Part shown: positions 1,600 through 59,717 of the stretch, piece by piece
Position numbering within the stretch: position 1 is the first letter of the stretch
How the letters are laid out: every line of letters begins with the position of its first letter
DNA from: Myxococcota bacterium
GTDB taxonomy: Bacteria; Myxococcota_A; SURF-8
Assembly (NCBI GenBank): GCA_965140415.1
Contig: OZ223209.1
Span: 5,056,001 to 5,120,000 of the forward strand
Direction of reading: 5' to 3'
DNA length: 64,000 bases
The notes under the pieces: generated by a model
Told to the model about the DNA's origin: nothing
What the model saw: the letters and a program-made list of their open reading frames with translations, nothing else
Databases searched by the model: none
Translations under genes and position numbers: made by a program

Positions 1600-2738
1600 T
1601 TATTCCGGCAGACCCGCCCAGTCCGGGAAAATCACATGCGCCATCTCATTGAAGATTTTATCCGCCAAGATAGGGCCCTGTTCGCAAACCAGATAGCCAT
1701 TGGCAAACACCACGATATCGACGTCACGTACGTGAAACATTACGGTCGTGTAACCGGGAATGGCTCCGGTGTGTCCAACCGCGTCTGGAAGACAACCCAG
1801 CCCCAGGCCATATCCGGCACCAGGAATCGACGCGTCCATATTATCGCAGATCAACCGATCCGTGTGCAACGGCTCCTGCAATAACCTGCTGTCCGTCAGT
1901 TCGTCCAGCCAGACCAGCAGATCGGATAAACTCGAAACAAAACCGCCCGCCGACCAGAATGCGGATGGATGCAGCCGGGTCATGTCTTCCGGTTTTGAAA
2001 GCTACAGGCATCCGTAAACGCCAGATATCCCTTTGCATAGTCGCCGGGAATCTCGGTGTCCGTCGGCAATGACGTATCCGATAACCCCAGCGGCTCCAGT
2101 ATGCGCTGTCGAACAAACGTCCCGTAGGACATTCCCGAGACCTGCTCCACGATCAGTCCCAGCGTGATGTAATTCGAGTTGCTGTAGCTTGCTCCCTCTC
2201 CGGGAGTGAATAGCAACTCGTTTGCATTGGCCACAGTCAACAATTGTTCGGGTTGCCAGGATTGACTGATATCCTCATAGAACTCGTCGAACCAGTCTTC
2301 GTTGGTGGCGTAATCGACGAGACCGCTGGAATGCTCCAGGAGCATCTTCACGGTAATATCGCTGCCGCGAGCGAGCAGTCCGGGAACCAGGCTCTCCACC
2401 GTATCCTCCAGCGACAGCTTCCCGTCCTGAACCAGCAGCAGAATCGCTTCCCCGGTAAAGGTTTTGGATACGCTACCGATGCGAAACAGCATCTCTACGG
2501 AAAGCGGAGTCTCCGTCTCCAGATCGGCCAAACCGTAGGCCGCCGTCCAACTGGAGCCGTCGTTAAATCGCACCAGCGCCATGGCTCCTGGAAAATCATA
2601 TAAAGCAGCGGCCTGTTCCATCGATTGCTGCAACTGTGAACCAAGACGCTCGGCCTCGGTCATCGATTCATCCGTATCGCAGGCGGTAAGTGAAACAAGC
2701 GCAAACCACATCGAGATGCCAATCAACAGTACTTTCAT
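1600..2738 (-). pseudogene. Serine hydrolase (beta-lactamase/PBP-like, AmpC family) lipoprotein split into two ORFs (1980-2738 and 1600-1983)
   Basis: SVSK (SxxK) and YSN motifs in the first ORF; PSAFWSAGG and GHTG motifs in the second; frames differ by -1 and overlap as ATGA. Confidence 0.75.
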
Positions 2739-3028
2739 GTTTTTCTTTTCCTCAACAGGTGAAAACCTTTCAGAGGCTCAAGCATACCCGTCTCTTCTAC
2801 TCAAGCCAAGAGATTCTCTCCCCGATTGCGGTTTGAATAAAGGCTGTCTCTAAAAAGGGCTATTCGTCGCGAGAACGCATCCTTTGCGAGACCGGGCGTT
2901 TTTCGCAATCCGCAGGCATATCCTGCAGATACGTCGAGTTTTGAGAGAAACGATCCGGGCCGGAAAGTGGCGTTCGTAGCAGAATATGGATATTTAGAGG
3001 TAGCCTAAACATTGTTGGTAGCTTCTTC

Positions 3029-3196
3029 TTCCCTTCCCCGACGGAGCCGCCTAGCATCATAAGGCTTGAATACCGGGGTGTAAGAGGGCGGCAGTCAAGG
3101 CCGGAGCGCAGCGACGTTCATATAGCCTTGACGGCTGCATGCGCCCCGGTACAAGCCGAGGATGATGCGAGGCAGGTGATGGAAGGTGGAAGGGAA
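3029..3196. repeat. Long imperfect inverted repeat (about 168-nt rod-like hairpin)
   Basis: Nested arms TTCCCTTCC/GGAAGGGAA, GCATCAT/ATGATGC, GGCTTG/CAAGCC, TACCGGGG/CCCCGGTA and GCGGCAGTCAAGGC/GCCTTGACGGCTGC. Confidence 0.85.
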
Positions 3197-5911: not shown

Positions 5912-6511
5912 TCAGCGCCAGATCTGCGGCGACTCCAACTCATCGTTGGTCAGCGACGTCAAGACATGGTCCTGCCACTCTCCATTAATGTATAGATACT
6001 TGCGAGCCGTGCCTTCTGCAATAAATCCTAGTTTTTTCAGAAGGTTACCGGAACGAGTATTGTGAGGAACGTGGTTGGCCATAATACGATGCAGTTTCAT
6101 GGTATCAAACACATAACGGATTGCGGGCTGGATAGCCTCGTACATCAGCTGCTGCCCTTGATAATCTTTATCTAGGTTGTAACCCATATAGCAAGACTGA
6201 AACGCCCCACGTACAATTTCCGTAAAGGTCAACGTTCCGATGATCGGTCGCTCGGGATCGTCCTTGGGGTACAGTCCCAACCAGATGAAATGATTCCGTT
6301 TAAACTCTCCAAGGGCTGCGGCAAGGAATTCCCGCCAGAAAGTTTCCGTATAGAAATCCGCCGCTCTCGGCGGCGACCACGGCGCTAAATGCTCCTTGTT
6401 GCGCTGGAAGAAATCCAGCATCCGCCCGGCATGTTGCGGTTCGGGAATCGTGACAATCAGTCGTTCGGTACGAAAAACAGGTCGCTCGATTGTGGAATAG
6501 GGGTAGCTCAT
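5912..6511 (-). CDS. rimJ: RimJ-like ribosomal-protein N-acetyltransferase (GNAT)
   Basis: TERL, IVRGAFQSCYMGY, LHRIMAN..P.N.RS..LL..LGF..EG.A..YL.ING.W.DH. Confidence 0.85.
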   Translation of the reverse strand: MSYPYSTIERPVFRTERLIVTIPEPQHAGRMLDFFQRNKEHLAPWSPPRAADFYTETFWREFLAAALGEFKRNHFIWLGLYPKDDPERPIIGTLTFTEIVRGAFQSCYMGYNLDKDYQGQQLMYEAIQPAIRYVFDTMKLHRIMANHVPHNTRSGNLLKKLGFIAEGTARKYLYINGEWQDHVLTSLTNDELESPQIWR

Positions 6512-7328
6512 CCGATTCCCTTGGCTAATCGGCTGGAAGTGAATGTTCCTCTTACTACCATTTTGCCTGCGCCGTAAGCAGACTGTTCTATTCCTATACG
6601 TTTTACTAGCGTGCTCTTTTTGTCAAGAGAATATAGCGGGAATCCACAGAACGAGACCCACTCAGGCATTTTGGCATCCTGGCATCATCTCTTTTCATTC
6701 TCACGATTTCCAATTGAAATGCCCTCGATCACTCGTTTTTGAGGTGAAAATGACCATGTGTTGCGGCAATTGCAACGCTTTTTTTAACTAGTAAGTCGCT
6801 CTCAAACTTTTGTTGTCCACTATTTCAGGACAAACATATCACATTGTATTTACAGCCTTTTTCTAGTACTCTGATTGTCATTCCACGTCATATTTCGATA
6901 AATTCAATCCAGATTACCCCAGAGTATACAAGTGTTGCAAAACATGTGTTGCGCAGCCATCCAGAATGCGTTGCGTCATAATGCTGGTAATTTTCACTAT
7001 GATATCATTGCCTTATAAACACTTCATACCTTACATTGTCGCAAGAGCGCATTATTTGCGCTTTTTTGGTCATTTTTCTGGGTGATTTTCTGAGTGAGGC
7101 TTCATCCATTTTCTTGGAATAGCCACTTTTATTTCTATAATTTGTGAAATCAAAACAACATCACCGCCTGTTGCTGTGCAACAGGTGCGCAGGTTTTACG
7201 TTTTACGTTTTGTCAAGAGTTTCAGTCACATGCCAGGATATTACCGATGCCAGCCAGCGTCCATTTATAACATTTTGGAATACCTGCCTGCTGTAGACGA
7301 GAATGGGGTGATTCTCATTGTGAAAAGT

Positions 7329-7344
7329 TGGCATGCAGATTGCT
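7329..7344 (+). promoter_or_regulatory. sigma54 (-24/-12) promoter
   Basis: TGGCATG-CAGA-TTGCT matches TGGCACG-N4-TTGCW with exact spacing. Confidence 0.75.
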
Positions 7345-7355
7345 TATTCTTCTAC

Positions 7356-7560
7356 TCGTTGTTTGTCGAAGGATCTCTGACAACGTAACCCATCCGCCAG
7401 TAGTAGTTGGCGGCTAGTGGAGATTTCGGGAAGCCGGAGTGGGAGTTGCTCAGGTTGATGCTCTGGTTGGTACTCAGGTTGTAGTTGGTTGTAATGTAGT
7501 TGCTCATTTTGATGTCATGTTCCCGTTTGCCTGGTCCGGCTTCCCTTTAAATTTCCTCTC
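7356..7560 (+). ncRNA. Candidate structured sRNA or 5' leader with a GUUG-repeat loop
   Basis: Begins at the expected sigma54 start site; hairpin CCGCCA/TGGCGG; 11-bp stem GGGAAGCCGGA (7428-7438)/TCCGGCTTCCC (7535-7545) enclosing seven GTTG repeats. Confidence 0.5.
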
Positions 7561-7585
7561 GACTCAACATAGGAGTAACGGCAAC

Positions 7586-7675
7586 ATGAAAGCAGTCTTC
7601 GAATTATTCTCAACGATTTTCAAAGAGAACATGAAATTCTGGTTCTCTTCGATCTTCGAAGAAAAGCGCGGTTAA
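7586..7675 (+). CDS. Small 29-aa Phe-rich amphipathic peptide MKAVFELFSTIFKENMKFWFSSIFEEKRG
   Basis: AGGAG RBS at 7571-7575; internal duplication whose nucleotide differences are partly synonymous. Confidence 0.55.
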   Translation: MKAVFELFSTIFKENMKFWFSSIFEEKRG

Positions 7676-8297
7676 AAGGCCTATCGGCATTTTCGGCTTT
7701 CTCTATGGATCTCCGAACTGAACTTCTAGCTTTCTTTCCTGGAAGAGTAATTTCTTCTGTACATCACATCCCAAGTGATACGCGTCAATTCTCAATCTAT
7801 CCCTCTGCTATAGAGAAAGCCGTAGATTTTTCTACGCAAGTGTAAAACCCCTTTAACACTTACATATAAATCGTGCGTTAAGGCACGATACACCCGATTC
7901 CCAATCGGGGTCGCCTTGGTTTTTCAAAAACCGGCGGCCTCGTCCTTTTCGCATTTTCTCTGTAATAACAATATATTAACTATATCTATGAGAAGCATGT
8001 GGGGTCTTGTCTGTTATTAAAGACCGCAAGATAGGTGCAAGCAATCTATAACTACTCTTCTGCCAGCCCCTCTTTTTTCAGACAAAATGTAAACCGCAAC
8101 TGTCAGAAAACAAATCCGAAAAAAGTGAAAATCTTCTAGTAGGAAAGAAAGCTTTTCAAGCCAACCTAAAATCTGTTACACTTCCCCCGCCAATTTACGT
8201 TGAGTGCCAATCGAATTCGACTTGCAGTTTAGGTGCGAAATTCACGCAATGCCTGCCAGTCGCATGAACCATGGAATGGATAAATGGAGATTTACCG

Positions 8298-9491
8298 ATG
8301 ATCCTACGGTTTGCTCACATGCTCTGCCTGTCTATACTGGTGTTATTATTAATGAATACATGGAGTTGGGCGCAGGAGAACTCGGAAGTCCTTCCGGCGC
8401 AAGCAGAAGAAACAGCAAAAGCCGCTGCCGATGCTCCCGAGACCGATGCTGCCACAACGACTGATTCCGGGACTGAAAATGCGGCTGCAACGGCTGATAC
8501 GCAAGAAAGCACCACGACCGAAACTACTGCGGCGGCGGAAGTGGAAGCCAGTCCGCAAAAGACCGAATCCAACACGGAAACGACCACAAACGCGCCGGTA
8601 AATACACCCGTTGATACACAAGAAGCACAGGACGTTTCCGAGGCTGGGACAAAGGCGACCGGTAAACAACCGCTAAAAGCACGTAACGACACGCAAACGA
8701 CCAGTGAACAAGCTCCGGTTGCCGGTCAGAATATGACCGAACCAGCCACAGAAACGACCGAAACCGCACCGGAAGCGGCGGAAACCACCAACACGGAAGC
8801 TACTCCCGTTGCTCCCGCAGCAGCCGAAGAAAGCTCTCCTTCCGAAACGACACCACCACCGGCAACCGCAGAAGCCACTAAAACGGAAGCAGCACCCGTA
8901 GCAGAAGAAGACGAGGATGAAGAGGACGAAGACGGTGAAGAAGAGGAAAAAGTTCCCGGCAGCCAGATTCGTTTTTCAATCGTCGGCGGTGGCCTGGTTC
9001 CCGTTAAAGGCGGCAAGGCGGGTTTCGCGGTCGGAGGTCATTTGGGATATGAATTCGGCGGCGACTTGAAGAATCTGAGTATTGAATTGTTTTTATACCA
9101 GGGTTGGAACGATAGCAACGAACTACTGGAAAAACCGGGCGAAAATCTGGATAAAACCCGCAAAGGGTTGAAGTTGCTGGCTTTCGCTCCGGGTGTACGC
9201 TATCGCGTGTATGGCGAGCGCTTCCGCGTGTATCTCTCCGGGCATATCGGTTTATCATACGCTACCTATACGCTGCCGGGGGATTCCGGTACTTCCAAAG
9301 AAGGCTTGGCGGCGGATCTGGGCGGCGGCATCGAGTATCAGCTTTCCGACATGTTCCACATCGATATCACTGCCGCCTACGCTTTCCATGCACTGAACAT
9401 TCCGATCATCGAAGGCAGTGCCAATAACAAAGGCAGCTACCTGCACGGTCTGTTCGTCGGCGCGGGAATCGGGTTGAAAACAGATCTGTAA
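8298..9491 (+). CDS. Outer-membrane beta-barrel protein with a long Thr/Ala/Glu-rich N-terminal region
   Basis: Signal peptide (SWA|Q); about 190 aa of low complexity ending in an acidic tract; C-terminal alternating beta-strands (GGGIEY, GLFVGAGIG). Confidence 0.75.
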   Translation: MILRFAHMLCLSILVLLLMNTWSWAQENSEVLPAQAEETAKAAADAPETDAATTTDSGTENAAATADTQESTTTETTAAAEVEASPQKTESNTETTTNAPVNTPVDTQEAQDVSEAGTKATGKQPLKARNDTQTTSEQAPVAGQNMTEPATETTETAPEAAETTNTEATPVAPAAAEESSPSETTPPPATAEATKTEAAPVAEEDEDEEDEDGEEEEKVPGSQIRFSIVGGGLVPVKGGKAGFAVGGHLGYEFGGDLKNLSIELFLYQGWNDSNELLEKPGENLDKTRKGLKLLAFAPGVRYRVYGERFRVYLSGHIGLSYATYTLPGDSGTSKEGLAADLGGGIEYQLSDMFHIDITAAYAFHALNIPIIEGSANNKGSYLHGLFVGAGIGLKTDL

Positions 9492-25075: not shown

Positions 25076-25385
25076 GTAAAAAAAGAATCGGTTTTGGTTT
25101 TTTTCTGACATTGCATGTGTGTTTCAGGTTGCCTTTCAATTTGTTTTCTGATAATACATATAGGTATACTTGGTTGACTGAAATCCAGCTCCTGCTCAAA
25201 CTCCTGCGATATTTACAATTCTTTCCTGATATCAAGCCCTTCCTGCCGATCTGATTCGCGTTCGAAATTTGCCGGATCAACTACAGCTTTTGCGAATCCC
25301 GATTTTCGATCCTCAACCAAGTCGATTGTCTCAGGTTCTTTCGCTTGCTGATTTCATGCAAGCTCACCACATTCAGGTGCAGCAA

Positions 25386-27194
25386 ATGAACAAATTGGAT
25401 AGCAAACTGGAAAGCTGGATTGCGGAACGATTGTTCGACACCGTACCGATGAGCATCGCCGTAATCGATCGCGACTTCAACCTGGTTGCCGCCAACAGCG
25501 CTTTCGAAGACCTTTTCGGGCATTGGCGCGGCAAGAAGTGCCACGCAGTGTATAAAAGCCGCGATTCGGTCTGCCCGCACTGCAAAGGCTCCCTTGCCTT
25601 CCAGGATAAGCAGCCGCAAGTCAATGAGGAAGTCGGCTATAATAAGGACGGCAAACCGACCCGCTACATCAAATACACCATCCCCATCTTCGACGAACAG
25701 GACGAAGTACCGTTTCTAGTTGAAATGTCTACGGATATCACCGAGGCGGACCAGACGAGGCGTGAACTGCAACTGCTGTTCGATCAGGTTCCATGCAACA
25801 TCACGGTGCTTGACCGGAATTTGAAAGTCGTGCGCACCAACAACAAGATTCATCAGACTTTCGGTGAGGCTATTGGCAAGTTCTGCTATCAGGTCTTTAA
25901 AAATCGTGAAACCGAATGCGAGGATTGCCCCGCGCGGCGCTCCTTTGAAGATGGCGGCATCCACAGTGCACAATCCATGGTCTGTAATGCGCGCGGGCAG
26001 CAAATGCACTTGCACGTCACCAGCGCGCCACTGGAAAGTGTGGACCGGCAGGTGGACCAAGTTGTTGAAATGGCTGTGGATATTACCGAAAATGTGGCGC
26101 TTCAGGATGAATTGCGCATTGCCCATTCCTTTTTGGAAACCTTAATCGCCGCCTCCATCGACGGAGTCATCGCCGTAGATGAGAACATGAACGTAACCGT
26201 TTTCAATGCCGCAGCCAGAAAGCTCTGCCAGGTGGCGGACAATCATTTCGTCACTTCCGCCGAGTTGGAACGCATGTTTCCCGAAGGCTTTCTAAATCAA
26301 GTCCATGCCGGAGTCGGACACGTTTATCTGCCTGATACCGAAATCCGTACCATGCGTGGCGAGGCGCTACCGGTTCGGTTGACGGGAGTTCAACTGCTGG
26401 ATAATGAACGTTACCTGGGAATGGCCTTCAGCATTCAGAACCTGACGCGCATCAAACAGTTGGAAAAAGCCAACCTGGACGCCGAACGACTGGCGGCGGT
26501 GGGACAAACGGTGGCGGGCCTGGCCCACGGCGTCAAGAACCTGATCGCCGGGCTGGAAGGCGGCATGTATATGCTCAATACCGGAATCAAGCTGGGGCAG
26601 TCGGAACGCATCGTGCAGGGCTGGGATATTCTGGATCGGAACATCGGGCGCATCGGGATGTTCGTAAAAGCCTTTCTGGGGTTCTCAAAAGGGCGCGAAA
26701 TCCAGGTGGAAAGCTGCGATCCGGCGTCAATTGCGGAAGAAGTCGTCCAGCTCTACTCGGCCAACGCCGAACGCGCCGGGATCGAATTGAACTACAAGGT
26801 GATCGGACAGGTTAAACCGGCCAATCTGGATAAAGAGGGCATTCACGAATGCCTGACAAATCTGGTCGGTAACGCCATCGACGCCTGTCAGATGAGCGAC
26901 AAAAGCGGCTGCCATGTAACGATACAGGTGCGAGATCGCGGCAATACGTTGATTTACGAGGTCACCGACGACGGCATCGGAATGGATTACGAAGTCAAAC
27001 GCAAAGTCTTCACCACGTTCTTTACCAGCAAGGGACTAGGCGGAACCGGCTTGGGACTATTGACCACGCGTAAAATCGTTCAGGAGCATGGCGGACGGAT
27101 CGATGTCGAAAGCGAGTTGAATCAGGGAACGACGTTTCGTATCGTGCTGCGGCGCGAACGTCTGCCCAAACCGATAAAACAGTCACCGCCGTAA
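25386..27194 (+). CDS. Cytoplasmic multi-PAS sensor histidine kinase
   Basis: Three PAS-like domains, two with Cys clusters; H-box AGLAHGVKN; N-box NLVGNAIDA; DDGIGM, FFTSK, GTGLGL; start uncertain (25356 or 25386). Confidence 0.92.
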   Translation: MNKLDSKLESWIAERLFDTVPMSIAVIDRDFNLVAANSAFEDLFGHWRGKKCHAVYKSRDSVCPHCKGSLAFQDKQPQVNEEVGYNKDGKPTRYIKYTIPIFDEQDEVPFLVEMSTDITEADQTRRELQLLFDQVPCNITVLDRNLKVVRTNNKIHQTFGEAIGKFCYQVFKNRETECEDCPARRSFEDGGIHSAQSMVCNARGQQMHLHVTSAPLESVDRQVDQVVEMAVDITENVALQDELRIAHSFLETLIAASIDGVIAVDENMNVTVFNAAARKLCQVADNHFVTSAELERMFPEGFLNQVHAGVGHVYLPDTEIRTMRGEALPVRLTGVQLLDNERYLGMAFSIQNLTRIKQLEKANLDAERLAAVGQTVAGLAHGVKNLIAGLEGGMYMLNTGIKLGQSERIVQGWDILDRNIGRIGMFVKAFLGFSKGREIQVESCDPASIAEEVVQLYSANAERAGIELNYKVIGQVKPANLDKEGIHECLTNLVGNAIDACQMSDKSGCHVTIQVRDRGNTLIYEVTDDGIGMDYEVKRKVFTTFFTSKGLGGTGLGLLTTRKIVQEHGGRIDVESELNQGTTFRIVLRRERLPKPIKQSPP

Positions 27195-27213
27195 CGCCAA
27201 GGAGTCGCATACC

Positions 27214-28959
27214 ATGGCGCGCGACAAGCAATGGATGTTATTTCTGGGGGCCGGGAGCAACAGCCTGCATCTGATGGCACAGGGGTTGGCGCAGACACAG
27301 CGATTAAATGGCCTGCAAGTCATCAGCGCCGCCATGACGCCCTCGGAACTGCATCCCATGGCCAACGAGGTGATGACACAGCTAGGGATCGAGTTGCAGC
27401 ATTTTCCCTTATTGACCCCTTTGGATATCGAGCTGTTCCATTTCGATCTTGTCATCACCCTGGGCGACTTCGACCGCTCCTGCCAACCGAATCTTCCCGG
27501 CATGCCGCCCCATATTCATTGGAATATTCCCGAGCCAAACGCCGATGACCCAGCCCAGCGCCTGCTTCAATTCCAGCAGGCACGAGATCGTTTGAAGGAT
27601 AAAATCTCTGCCTTGTACGATCAGGGCTTTTTCGAGGCCTTGTTTACCACGCGACGAAACCTGGATCTGATTCTCGACAACATGATCGAGGGCGTCATGG
27701 CTCACACCACCAATCGCCGCATTTTCTATTTCAACCAGGCCGCCGAACGCATCACCGGGCATCGTCGCGAAGATCTGTTAGGCAAAGACTGCCACGATGT
27801 GTTTCCGGGTCGTTTTTGCGGCGGGCAGTGCGACTTCTGCGAAGGCGGGCAAACAGAGCGGGGAAAAGTAAACCGTAAAGAAGTGATGTTCACCTGTCCA
27901 AACGGAGAACGACGCTTATTGGAAATGGCGACCATGCCGCTTTCCGGCCTGGGAGGAATGAATGTCGGCGCGTTGATTTCCTTTAAAGACAACACCGAAC
28001 TGGCGGCACTGAAACTTCGGCTGAAGCATCATCATTCGCTGGGAGGTCTGATCGGCAAAGACCCGAAAATGCTGGCGCTTTTCGATCAGATCCGCGAAGT
28101 CGGAAAGGTCAACGTCCCGGTATTGATCGAAGGCGAAAGCGGCACAGGAAAAGAACTGGTAGCCAACGCCATCCACGATATCGGAGAGCGGGCAAACAAA
28201 CCTTTTGTGGCCATCAACTGCGGCGCCCTACCGGAAGGCATCTTGGAAAGCGAATTGTTCGGGCACGTGCGCGGAGCGTTTTCCGGCGCGGTGCAGAATA
28301 AAAAAGGTCGCTTTGAACTAGCCGACGGCGGCACGATCTTTCTGGATGAAGTCGGGGAACTGTCACCCGCCATGCAGGTAAAACTGCTTCGGGTGTTGCA
28401 GGAGCAACGATTCGAGCGCGTCGGTGGAGAACATTCGATTTCCGTGGACGTGCGCGTGATCAGCGCCACCAATCAGAAACTGCGCCGCATGATGGAAACC
28501 CGTCGCTTCCGGCGCGACTTGTTTTATCGGCTTTGCGTTGTGCCGATTACGCTGCCGCCGCTACGCGAGCGCCGCTTGGACATCCCGATGCTCGTCGAAC
28601 ATTTTTTGGAGCGCATCGCGACCGAAACCGAGCGCAGCATCCTGCGACCTTCCACCGAAGCGCTGGACCTGTTGACTCAATATCCCTGGCCTGGAAACGT
28701 GCGCGAATTACGCAACTCGATTGAATACGCCTATGTCAAGTGCCATGGCGACACCATCCACCCGGAGCATCTGCCACCGGAAATCACGCAGCAACATCAA
28801 CGCCCGGTCGTCAAGCCCGGTCCTGCTTTGAAATATGACAAGGAAGAGATCATACTGGCCCTGGCGCAGGCCGAAGGCAACAAGCAACAGGCAGCCAAGC
28901 GACTCGGCATCGGTCGCGCAACCCTGTATCGCTACTTGAAAACCTTTCGCCTTAGCTGA
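27214..28959 (+). CDS. sigma54-dependent activator (bEBP): ArsC/LMW-PTP-like domain + PAS + AAA+ + Fis HTH
   Basis: GESGTGKE, ESELFGH..GAFSGA, FLDEV, RRDLFYRL, WPGNVREL, AAKRLGIGRATLYR; N-terminus resembles thioredoxin-type ArsC. Confidence 0.93.
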   Translation: MARDKQWMLFLGAGSNSLHLMAQGLAQTQRLNGLQVISAAMTPSELHPMANEVMTQLGIELQHFPLLTPLDIELFHFDLVITLGDFDRSCQPNLPGMPPHIHWNIPEPNADDPAQRLLQFQQARDRLKDKISALYDQGFFEALFTTRRNLDLILDNMIEGVMAHTTNRRIFYFNQAAERITGHRREDLLGKDCHDVFPGRFCGGQCDFCEGGQTERGKVNRKEVMFTCPNGERRLLEMATMPLSGLGGMNVGALISFKDNTELAALKLRLKHHHSLGGLIGKDPKMLALFDQIREVGKVNVPVLIEGESGTGKELVANAIHDIGERANKPFVAINCGALPEGILESELFGHVRGAFSGAVQNKKGRFELADGGTIFLDEVGELSPAMQVKLLRVLQEQRFERVGGEHSISVDVRVISATNQKLRRMMETRRFRRDLFYRLCVVPITLPPLRERRLDIPMLVEHFLERIATETERSILRPSTEALDLLTQYPWPGNVRELRNSIEYAYVKCHGDTIHPEHLPPEITQQHQRPVVKPGPALKYDKEEIILALAQAEGNKQQAAKRLGIGRATLYRYLKTFRLS

Positions 28960-59193: not shown

Positions 59194-59472
59194 CTGTTTT
59201 CTACATTGATGAAATCAAGCGAAAACGGTTATAGACGGTCCCTCGCAGCTAATAGAAATAACAGAAGAAACCCGAAAATCTGTCAGTCCAAGCTATGCAG
59301 AAAAGTTTCCATTGCAGCCGCTGCTGTGCAAGTTCTGCATATTATTTTCATGCTTTTGCAGATCCTGAATAGCCATTCAACTAGACACTTGTGTTCAGCA
59401 AGAAGATATATACTTGATATTTCTATGGATTCCACCGATCCACGTTAAACCTCATCAAAACAAACCTACACT

Positions 59473-59488
59473 TGGCACAATGCTTGCT
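59473..59488 (+). promoter_or_regulatory. sigma54 (-24/-12) promoter
   Basis: TGGCACA-ATGC-TTGCT, about 40 nt upstream of a GGAGG-preceded ATG. Confidence 0.8.
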
Positions 59489-59528
59489 ACTTTATTTACT
59501 CAATCTCGCTGCTATTGTGGAGGCACAA

Positions 59529-59717
59529 ATGGCCCAGAACACCAGTTGTGAAGCACAGAAGAAAGAGCATAGCCAATTTGTTCCGGGCTTGAACACTGAA
59601 GTTGAAAAGGTGGTATGCATTGAATGCCAGCGCAAAGTCGATCCGAAACACACGGTAATCGTTTCCGCCAAAGGCGGCGTGCGCTACCATTTGTGTATGA
59701 AGCATGTAGCTAAGTAG
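59529..59717 (+). CDS. Small 62-aa putative Zn-binding protein (CIEC...C..H)
   Basis: GGAGG RBS, CxxC and CxxH motifs, own sigma54 promoter. Confidence 0.7.
   Translation: MAQNTSCEAQKKEHSQFVPGLNTEVEKVVCIECQRKVDPKHTVIVSAKGGVRYHLCMKHVAK

Follow-up and report, generated by a model that had tools for sequence, protein, structure and literature searches.

Evidence for a conserved sigma-54-type RNA unit with a repeat-bearing structured leader and a coding small open reading frame in one order of Myxococcota

The window analyzed here is a stretch of 64,000 nt from the genome of a Myxococcota bacterium (assembly GCA_965140415.1, contig OZ223209.1, positions 5,056,001 to 5,120,000 of the forward strand; coordinates below are counted from its first letter unless stated otherwise). 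An intergenic gap of this window was found to possess a unit of about 0.5 kb in which a sigma-54-type promoter is followed by a helix-closed RNA loop rich in GUUG, a small open reading frame (ORF) and a second structured RNA domain. We hold it highly probable that the unit is genuine and conserved, a sigma-54-type RNA whose small ORF is coding. A first-pass annotation of the same DNA saw only the 5' third of this unit, which it described as a sigma-54-driven structured RNA or leader at 7329–7560. As the ORF reads as a conserved coding gene and is accompanied by a better-conserved 3' RNA domain, the GUUG stem-loop is taken to be one part of the larger unit, referred to below as the module. Its features are as follows:

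7329–7344, plus strand: putative sigma-54 (-24/-12) promoter TGGCAT-N5-TTGCT, TGGCATGCAGATTGCT; GG and GC are 10 nt apart, which fits the consensus
7357–7413, plus strand: 5' segment with a hairpin at 7357–7385 (TCTYTGA in its loop) and a hairpin at 7394–7413
7419–7426, plus strand: 5' strand of an outer extension of helix P2, GGAGATTT, pairing with 7549–7556; window only
7428–7438, plus strand: 5' arm of helix P2, GGGAAGCCGGA, from the minimum-free-energy (MFE) fold and covariation
7439–7534, plus strand: loop enclosed by P2, 73% G+U, with seven GTTG and a weak 12-nt repeat at 7447–7481
7484–7491, plus strand: conserved 8-mer GTTGGTTG, G[T/C]TGGT[T/C]G in the four genomes of the family
7535–7545, plus strand: 3' arm of P2, TCCGGCTTCCC, then a pyrimidine-rich linker to 7571
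7572–7575, plus strand: predicted Shine-Dalgarno sequence GGAG, 10 nt before the ATG, with a purine-rich element at the same place in the homologues
7586–7675, plus strand: small ORF of 29 codons plus stop, MKAVFELFSTIFKENMKFWFSSIFEEKRG
7695–7821, plus strand: 3' RNA domain with closing helix 7695–7709/7807–7821; GGATCTCCGAAC is conserved after the 5' arm
7776–7787, plus strand, inside the 3' RNA domain: hairpin with an invariant GCGTCA(A) at 7782–7788
7822–7935, plus strand: tail of uncertain extent, with a hairpin at 7822–7835 and terminator-like hairpins at 7870–7932; the 3' end is undefined in this genome

The module was found in 6 of the 10 Myxococcota-labelled genomes of the order, which in this sample are simultaneously the entire class. 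The six belong to two families, namely four of six genomes in the window's family (the window's own genome G000, 5.98 Mb, and G001, G002 and G004 from other genera) and both genomes of a sister family (G006 and G009), with none in the single genome of each of two further families. It is single copy in G000, and the two genomes of the window's family without it are 79–86% complete. In the phylum samples elsewhere the module was not found by the peptide profile (401 genomes) or by the RNA model (151 genomes), leaving six weak peptide-profile matches (E 0.011–0.096) and one weak match in G063 to R1, the covariance model of the 3' RNA domain. The gene that follows the module varies between genomes and the unit is therefore autonomous. 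The homologue in G001 was reached by synteny with the downstream beta-barrel gene, those in G002 and G004 by a profile of the small ORF, that in G009 by the 3' RNA model and that in G006 by an enlarged peptide profile. A DNA similarity search of 40 relatives returned no homologues and only a single 23-nt chance match, and a 78-aa frame used as query against the genome contigs found no relatives. A DNA pattern combining stem and motif matched only the G001 and G004 contigs among the genome contigs; the five stretches it matched in metagenome contigs were rejected as chance matches within coding or low-complexity DNA.

In the congeneric G006 and G009 the similar stretch runs from the promoter to the terminator U-run, with 76–93% identity, and the flanks on either side are unalignable (215/418 and 131/316 identical columns, 51 and 41%, respectively). 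Identical positions number 129 of 143 in the loop (90%), 126 of 135 in the 3' domain (93%) and 21 of 32 among the third codon positions of the ORF (66%). The non-coding domains thus evolve more slowly than silent sites, which is the strongest evidence that the unit functions at the RNA level.

The small ORF has homologues of 27–32 codons in the five other genomes and in one metagenome protein (P0003), the seventh peptide of the set, which is 72% identical to that of the window. Peptides from the four genera of the family are only 28–48% identical to each other, and the identity by codon position in these genomes is 0.44/0.79/0.36. The G006 and G009 ORFs agree at 87 of 99 positions, with 11 of the 12 differing codons being synonymous, and all three environmental variants that fall within the ORF (7612, 7621, and 7651) are synonymous third-position changes. 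Judged by these substitution patterns, the 27–32-codon ORF is a coding gene for a conserved small protein. The peptide had no match in Pfam, NCBIfam or the Atlas. It has two hydrophobic runs of 9–10 residues parted by a conserved K/R-E-N, and no membrane-spanning stretch; an amphipathic helix was considered and rejected, as 102–250 of 1000 shuffled peptides reach the observed hydrophobic moment.

Both long helices of the RNA are supported by compensatory change, and the covariation proposed as a check by the first-pass annotation was thus observed. Helix P2 is present in all six genomes, as an uninterrupted run of 11–13 pairs in the four from the window's family and as 16 positions with a single mismatch in each of the two from the sister family; at five positions both partners have changed. 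The MFE fold of the window contains the stem 7428–7438/7535–7545, the outer extension 7419–7426/7549–7556 and an inner GGGAG/TTCCC pairing. The helix closing the 3' domain spans 12–15 bp across the module-bearing genomes. In four of them all 60 cells of its 15 pairs are paired, with four pairs changed on both sides; none of 500 shuffles scored as high and slid controls were 41–53% paired. In G009, 13 of 14 aligned pairs are kept, with three more compensatory positions. P2 pairs were counted by scripts anchored on the CCGG cores and the G009 helix was read from the covariance-model alignment, because MAFFT placed the helix arms out of register. Model R1 scores 121–138 bits in the four genomes and also retrieves G009. 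Within the 5' segment TCTYTGA is invariant in the four genomes of the family, in G001 within a wholly different 6-bp stem, and the folds and alignment place a hairpin at the second position in G001 and G004 also.

The loop enclosed by P2 is distinguished by its GTTG content. The seven copies (starting at 7445, 7454, 7466, 7478, 7484, 7488, and 7499) fall within 67 nt, where the genome density would predict about 0.34; shuffling the loop with its dinucleotides preserved gives 2.2 on average, and none of 1000 shuffles reaches seven. Three of the copies lie inside a weak 12-nt tandem repeat (2.9 copies, Tandem Repeats Finder score 49). Clusters of at least six GTTG per 100 nt number 29 genome-wide, and that of the module is the sole one outside long stop-free frames. 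The promoter, hairpins, stems and GTTG copies reported by the first-pass annotation are all present and exceed chance, and the promoter, closing stem and GUUG-rich loop recur in the three other genera of the family. The loops of this family are 55–73% G+U without CAAC, and carry 7, 3, 6, and 5 copies of GUUG, which is their most over-represented 4-mer (21 vs. 6.6 expected, 0/1000 shuffles) and is enriched individually in three of the four. In all four, G[U/C]UGGU[U/C]G sits 45–51 nt 5' of the 3' arm of P2. Loop length ranges over 79–199 nt across the six genomes. In the two 143-nt sister-family loops (L055 in G009 and L062 in G006) CATC (6–7 copies) and ATCA (4–6 copies) replace GTTG; a 12-nt stretch, TGTTCCTGCTCC, read by eye, is common to these loops and that of G004. 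The loop motif therefore differs by lineage, while inside a lineage the loop sequence is under strong constraint, a combination which a co-evolving partner fits better than a decoy for one conserved protein.

No conserved partner of the loop was found within the transcript. Pairing between the 5' loop and the 3' domain was no better than in shuffled sequences (118–195 of 200 at least as stable), the 8-mer has no positionally conserved partner within the transcript, and the GUUG repeat matches no assignable site of an RNA-binding protein. CsrA is encoded in G000, with the GGA motifs of the RNA not being conserved, and Hfq was not found in this genome. Sense upstream ORFs and an antisense 51-aa frame in the loop were rejected, as neither length nor sequence is conserved.

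The promoter element lies in a gap at 6512–8270 which has no ORF longer than 82 aa and a G+C content of 38–46% compared with 52% for the genome. A sigma-54-type element is kept in all six module-bearing genomes, in the form TTGGCAY-N5-TTGCT and 100–104 nt 5' of the 5' arm of the stem in the window's family, and as TGGCAC-N5-(G/C)TGCA in the sister family; by its sequence it qualifies as a sigma-54 promoter, from which transcription would start near 7355. Matches to the strict pattern TGGCAY-N5-TTGCW number two in the window (0.23 expected; 3 of 100 shuffles reach two) and 32 genome-wide, compared with 12–23 in four Markov-simulated genomes, so that the pattern alone is only mildly enriched and suggestive. 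The genome encodes rpoN and has 32 matches to the sigma-54 activator domain. The other strict match of the window (59473–59488) precedes by about 40 nt the ATG (59529) of a 62-codon Cys/His-rich frame, which is contained in the frame 59472–59717.

Upstream of the promoter lie candidate sites for a bacterial enhancer-binding protein (bEBP), to which no strand is assigned and whose function is conjectural:

6758–6778: candidate enhancer site, inverted repeat GTGTTGC-N7-GCAACGC, about 570 nt upstream of the promoter
6932–6938 and 6946–6952: candidate half-sites GTGTTGC (direct)
6968–6974: candidate half-site GCGTTGC
7167–7185: best candidate enhancer site, palindrome CCTGTTGC-TGT-GCAACAGG, about 160 nt upstream of the promoter

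The 818 nt preceding the promoter contain three copies of GTGTTGC or GCAACAC, where the genome density predicts about 0.12, and the 700 nt next to it contain five TGTTGC/GCAACA half-sites (0.52 expected). Palindromes of the class TGTTGC-N3..12-GCAACA have eight copies in the entire genome; another of them precedes, by about 130 nt, a sigma-54 promoter that directly follows a receiver-PAS-AAA+-HTH activator gene. In G001, where both loci repeat the pattern, two palindromes of the form GTGTTGC-N9-GCAACAC are found at comparable distances; in G002 and G004 such sites are not clearly evident upstream. A count of five half-sites was also obtained at two of the other strict promoter matches, both beside bEBP genes, with two or fewer at the remaining 29. 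As equal counts occur beside two different activator genes, two candidate regulators remain. A weak Rfam match to an L25 leader at the palindrome (21 bits vs. a gathering threshold of 34.1) was discarded as merely reflecting the palindrome.

One of the two activator genes, outside the window, adjoins a second RNA-like unit (G000:C1:283550–284060, locus L047 at about 2550–3060). This unit lies directly downstream of the receiver-PAS-AAA+-HTH activator gene (281812–283548) and has a sigma-54 promoter at 283692 with TGTTGC/GCAACA sites, followed by about 330 nt without an ORF and a hairpin with a U-run at the end, a layout like that of nla19-pxr. It has no Rfam match. The same arrangement occurs in G001, with a conserved core CCTCGACCC...TCCGAT.CC.GAA, and is absent from the G004 orthologue. 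The other strict match, at G000:C1:4629266 and also outside the window, has five half-sites within 700 nt upstream and adjoins an activator gene (sigma-54 interaction domain at 4627803–4628303), the second candidate regulator with the same site type. The activator gene closest to the RNA unit, at a distance of 20 kb, lies in the window itself: it encodes a PAS-AAA+-HTH sigma-54 activator and comes after a PAS histidine kinase gene, the pair being located at 25269–28956. No link between this activator gene and the unit was seen.

The presence of the unit in environmental RNA was examined by scanning a 1.4-kb stretch (6900–8300) against metatranscriptomes, and the transcript anticipated by the first-pass annotation is consistent with the outcome, although the contigs do not give strand, ends or level. 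Four runs from three studies yielded one contig each, covering 7375–7525 (identical to the window), 7577–7801, 7581–7785, and 7632–7848, all inside the predicted unit; a loose end of the second matches back to about 7556 save for one letter. The stretches 6900–7374 and 7849–8300 were not covered in these runs, which is not evidence of silence. The search of Rfam 15 likewise left the proposal of an undescribed RNA standing: over 6400–8400 with E up to 10 there were three matches, all far below gathering (21 vs. 34.1, 13.5 vs. 41, and 11.6 vs. 35.6 bits) and none in 7329–7560, and the three homologous loci gave one irrelevant sub-threshold match. By these comparisons the unit would be a real, undescribed combination of RNA and small protein, with no counterpart in Rfam, Pfam or NCBIfam.

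The reading we lean toward, if only somewhat, is a cis-acting one, in which the RNA is the mRNA of a small protein whose untranslated regions act at the RNA level, with a partner of the loop controlling the ORF or the transcript. A sigma-54 promoter would make the RNA, with activation probably by an enhancer-binding response regulator at the upstream TGTTGC/GCAACA sites. The RNA consists of three selected parts, namely the leader with its helix-closed and mostly unpaired loop, the 27–32-codon ORF, and the 3' domain with a long covarying helix. The P2 stem may present the loop as a single-stranded docking surface, formed in the window's family by GUUG repeats and GUUGGUYG, on which a sequence-specific partner (an RNA or RNA-binding protein) would dock. 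Docking could then govern access to the downstream Shine-Dalgarno sequence, the stability of the transcript, or both, and the 3' domain may stabilize or terminate the RNA. The distance from the 3' arm of P2 to the ATG is 40–51 nt in the four genomes of the family. The MFE folds of G000, G001, and G002 show the Shine-Dalgarno sequence paired, either to a pyrimidine tract upstream of it or to the 5' end; for G001 and G002 the prediction places its region in a hairpin or helix opposite CCUC/CCUU. The cis switch suggested by the first-pass annotation, between GUUG and the CAAC motifs which flank the ribosome binding site of the small ORF, did not survive comparison: the motifs are present in the window, and in the homologues they are absent or displaced, with one environmental variant having TAAC at one of them.

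Several observations weigh against this cis-acting reading or the evidence beneath it. As the loop and the 8-mer lack a conserved intramolecular partner, a purely cis switch is left without an identified second strand, and sequestration of the Shine-Dalgarno sequence is not evident in the G004 fold. The sister-family loops retain the stem and the large loop with only 0–1 GUUG and 6–7 CAUC, and the GUUG count of G001 taken singly is not significant (reached by 101 of 1000 shuffles). The folding z-score of the whole RNA is unremarkable (-1.06), and the strict promoter pattern is genome-wide only about twice as frequent as in simulation. The metatranscriptome contigs, silent on strand, ends and level, may include DNA carried over into RNA libraries. 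The comparison rests on only six genomes, in which closely related pairs cannot be counted as independent.

Control of the small ORF in cis through a bound partner ranks slightly ahead of action in trans, in which the unit would be a dual-function RNA serving as a multi-seed regulator of CAAC mRNAs (GcvB-like) or as a protein or RNA decoy (CrcZ- or RNAIII-like). This trans-acting role is regarded as possible, though not as probable. It would account for the conservation of the non-coding loop and 3' domain above the level of synonymous sites and for a loop which is G/U-rich, predicted to be largely unpaired, furnished with repeated short motifs and a conserved 8-mer, and devoid of a conserved cis partner. 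The enhancer-like motif is common to the second, non-coding sigma-54 unit beside a bEBP gene, and a shift from GUUG to CAUC between families is what would be expected of co-evolving RNA–RNA pairing. However, no target or partner was identified, though no search for targets in the genomes was made, and the fixed loop-to-start-codon distance of 40–51 nt also suits control in cis. Hfq was not found in G000, so that a mechanism relying on it, as for GcvB or CrcZ, cannot operate in that form. The shift of motif also speaks against a sponge for one conserved protein: of the CrcZ-like sponge offered by the first-pass annotation, the repeated GUUG in the loops of the family stands, and its replacement by CAUC in the sister family weakens the proposal since GUUG is not universal. 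A fuller form of the trans-acting idea is held just as tentatively. The unit would represent an undescribed dual-function RNA family of one Myxococcota order, in which a two-component sigma-54 activator has RNAs as its main outputs (the ~0.5-kb unit and the non-coding unit beside the activator's own gene), the loop is a trans-acting surface (seed array or decoy) co-evolved with its partners (GUUG/CAUC), and the protein acts in the same pathway.

Three further explanations are improbable to differing degrees. The stem might be functional and the GUUG repeats a neutral, slippage-derived expansion in a variable loop, which the range of loop lengths (79–199 nt), the three GUUG copies in the weak 12-nt tandem repeat and the difference of motif between families would suit. 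We consider this unlikely: G006 and G009 share 90% identity in the loop, compared with 66% for third positions of the ORF and unalignable flanks; the 8-mer keeps its distance to the 3' arm across four genera with only 28–48% peptide identity; and GUUG is enriched individually in three of four family loops. It is more improbable still that the entire stretch is a long 5' leader of the beta-barrel gene at 8271–9491. That gene has the orientation of the unit, its orthologue in G001 also comes after the module, and the window's family has no canonical terminator directly after the 3' domain. However, the orthologues in G002 and G004 lie elsewhere without a module while unrelated genes follow the module there, an intrinsic terminator closes the unit in G006 and G009, where conservation stops, and unit and gene are 450 nt apart in the window, with terminator-like hairpins in between. 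Least credible, by a little, is a type I toxin-antitoxin-like locus in which the mRNA of a toxic peptide is silenced by folded untranslated regions and an antisense RNA. A small ORF on a highly structured mRNA with a possibly sequestered Shine-Dalgarno sequence would agree with such a locus, but the peptide has no run long enough to span a membrane, and the locus is single copy with an activator-dependent sigma-54-type promoter.

In G006 and G009 a canonical hairpin and U-run lie about 12 nt after the 3' domain and the predicted transcripts are about 529–534 nt long; in the four genomes of the window's family no intrinsic terminator was found directly after this domain. In the window a cluster of hairpins (7870–7889, 7893–7910, and 7914–7935, with a short U-run after the last) lies between the unit and the beta-barrel gene, and may be the true 3' end in G000 or a separate element. 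The gap is flanked by a GNAT acetyltransferase gene on the minus strand and by the OMP_b-brl gene on the plus strand. The 406-aa product of the latter (8271–9491) has a signal-like N-terminus, a middle part of about 200 acidic, low-complexity residues rich in Thr, Pro and Glu which includes an Asp/Glu run, and a C-terminal OMP_b-brl domain. Only in G001 does the orthologue of this gene come after a module, and no module was found upstream of the orthologues in G002 and G004.

The unit is of interest as a compact stretch from promoter to terminator combining two covarying RNA domains, a conserved micro-protein, a candidate regulator and presence in environmental RNA libraries. Roles in cis and trans could be separated by mutating the start codon or the loop, and the change of repeat motif between families constitutes a natural experiment on the evolution of an RNA surface. 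Should the RNA be merely the structured mRNA of a small protein, it would still reveal a new small-protein family under sigma-54 control. A search of the literature found no relevant sigma-54-linked dual-function or small-ORF RNA for Myxococcota. To our knowledge, regulatory RNA in this phylum is almost unexplored beyond Pxr. By term search, the words sigma54, RpoN and Myxococc are absent from a 2025 review of dual-function RNAs (PMC12612679).

Among known systems, GcvB is Hfq-dependent, driven by sigma-70 and non-coding. The unit shares with it a G/U-rich, single-stranded, conserved stretch able to pair with CAAC/ACCAAC sites. In its promoter logic the unit is like CrcZ/CrcY and Pxr (PMC5113210; PMC5568312). 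CrcZ and CrcY of Pseudomonas also have a sigma-54 promoter, with an activator site upstream of it to which the candidate enhancer sites of the unit would correspond, and they too repeat a short motif in unpaired RNA. PMC5113210 describes CbrB as serving both, one RNA being beside the activator gene and the other elsewhere; here the shared TGTTGC/GCAACA sites suggest that one activator might similarly serve an RNA beside its own gene and another at a distance. In contrast, the CrcZ motif is an A-rich Hfq/Crc site (AAnAAnAA) rather than GUUG or CAUC in a genome where Hfq was not found, CrcZ is non-coding whereas the present unit has a conserved ORF and a second structured domain, and there is no sequence or Rfam relationship between them. 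Pxr of Myxococcus carries the same phylum label and is a regulatory RNA predicted to be sigma-54-dependent and located downstream of the bEBP gene nla19 (PMC5568312). It differs in being about 100 nt long with three stem-loops, non-coding and adjacent to its bEBP gene, whereas the unit is about 0.5 kb, coding, and 20 kb from the nearest bEBP gene; its neighbours are the GNAT and beta-barrel genes, and the Pxr-like layout is found instead at G000:C1:283550–284060.

The closest likeness is to the dual-function RNAs RNAIII/delta-haemolysin, AzuCR/AzuC, VcdRP/VcdP, and SgrS/SgrT, which are 0.16–0.5 kb long and combine an ORF of 26–43 codons with conserved structured RNA outside it. RNAIII is given as 514 nt with a 26-aa peptide (PMC12612679), AzuCR as encoding 28 aa (PMC8915982) and VcdRP 29 aa (PMC8672173). 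The present unit differs in promoter type and shows no sequence similarity to these RNAs, its base-pairing is only conjectural, and its peptide is not significantly amphipathic. What it shares with them, as far as the alignments indicate, is a small ORF under protein-level selection within a short independent unit, bounded by promoter and terminator in G006 and G009. By this analogy the unit would work most like a dual-function RNA of the RNAIII/AzuCR/VcdRP kind.

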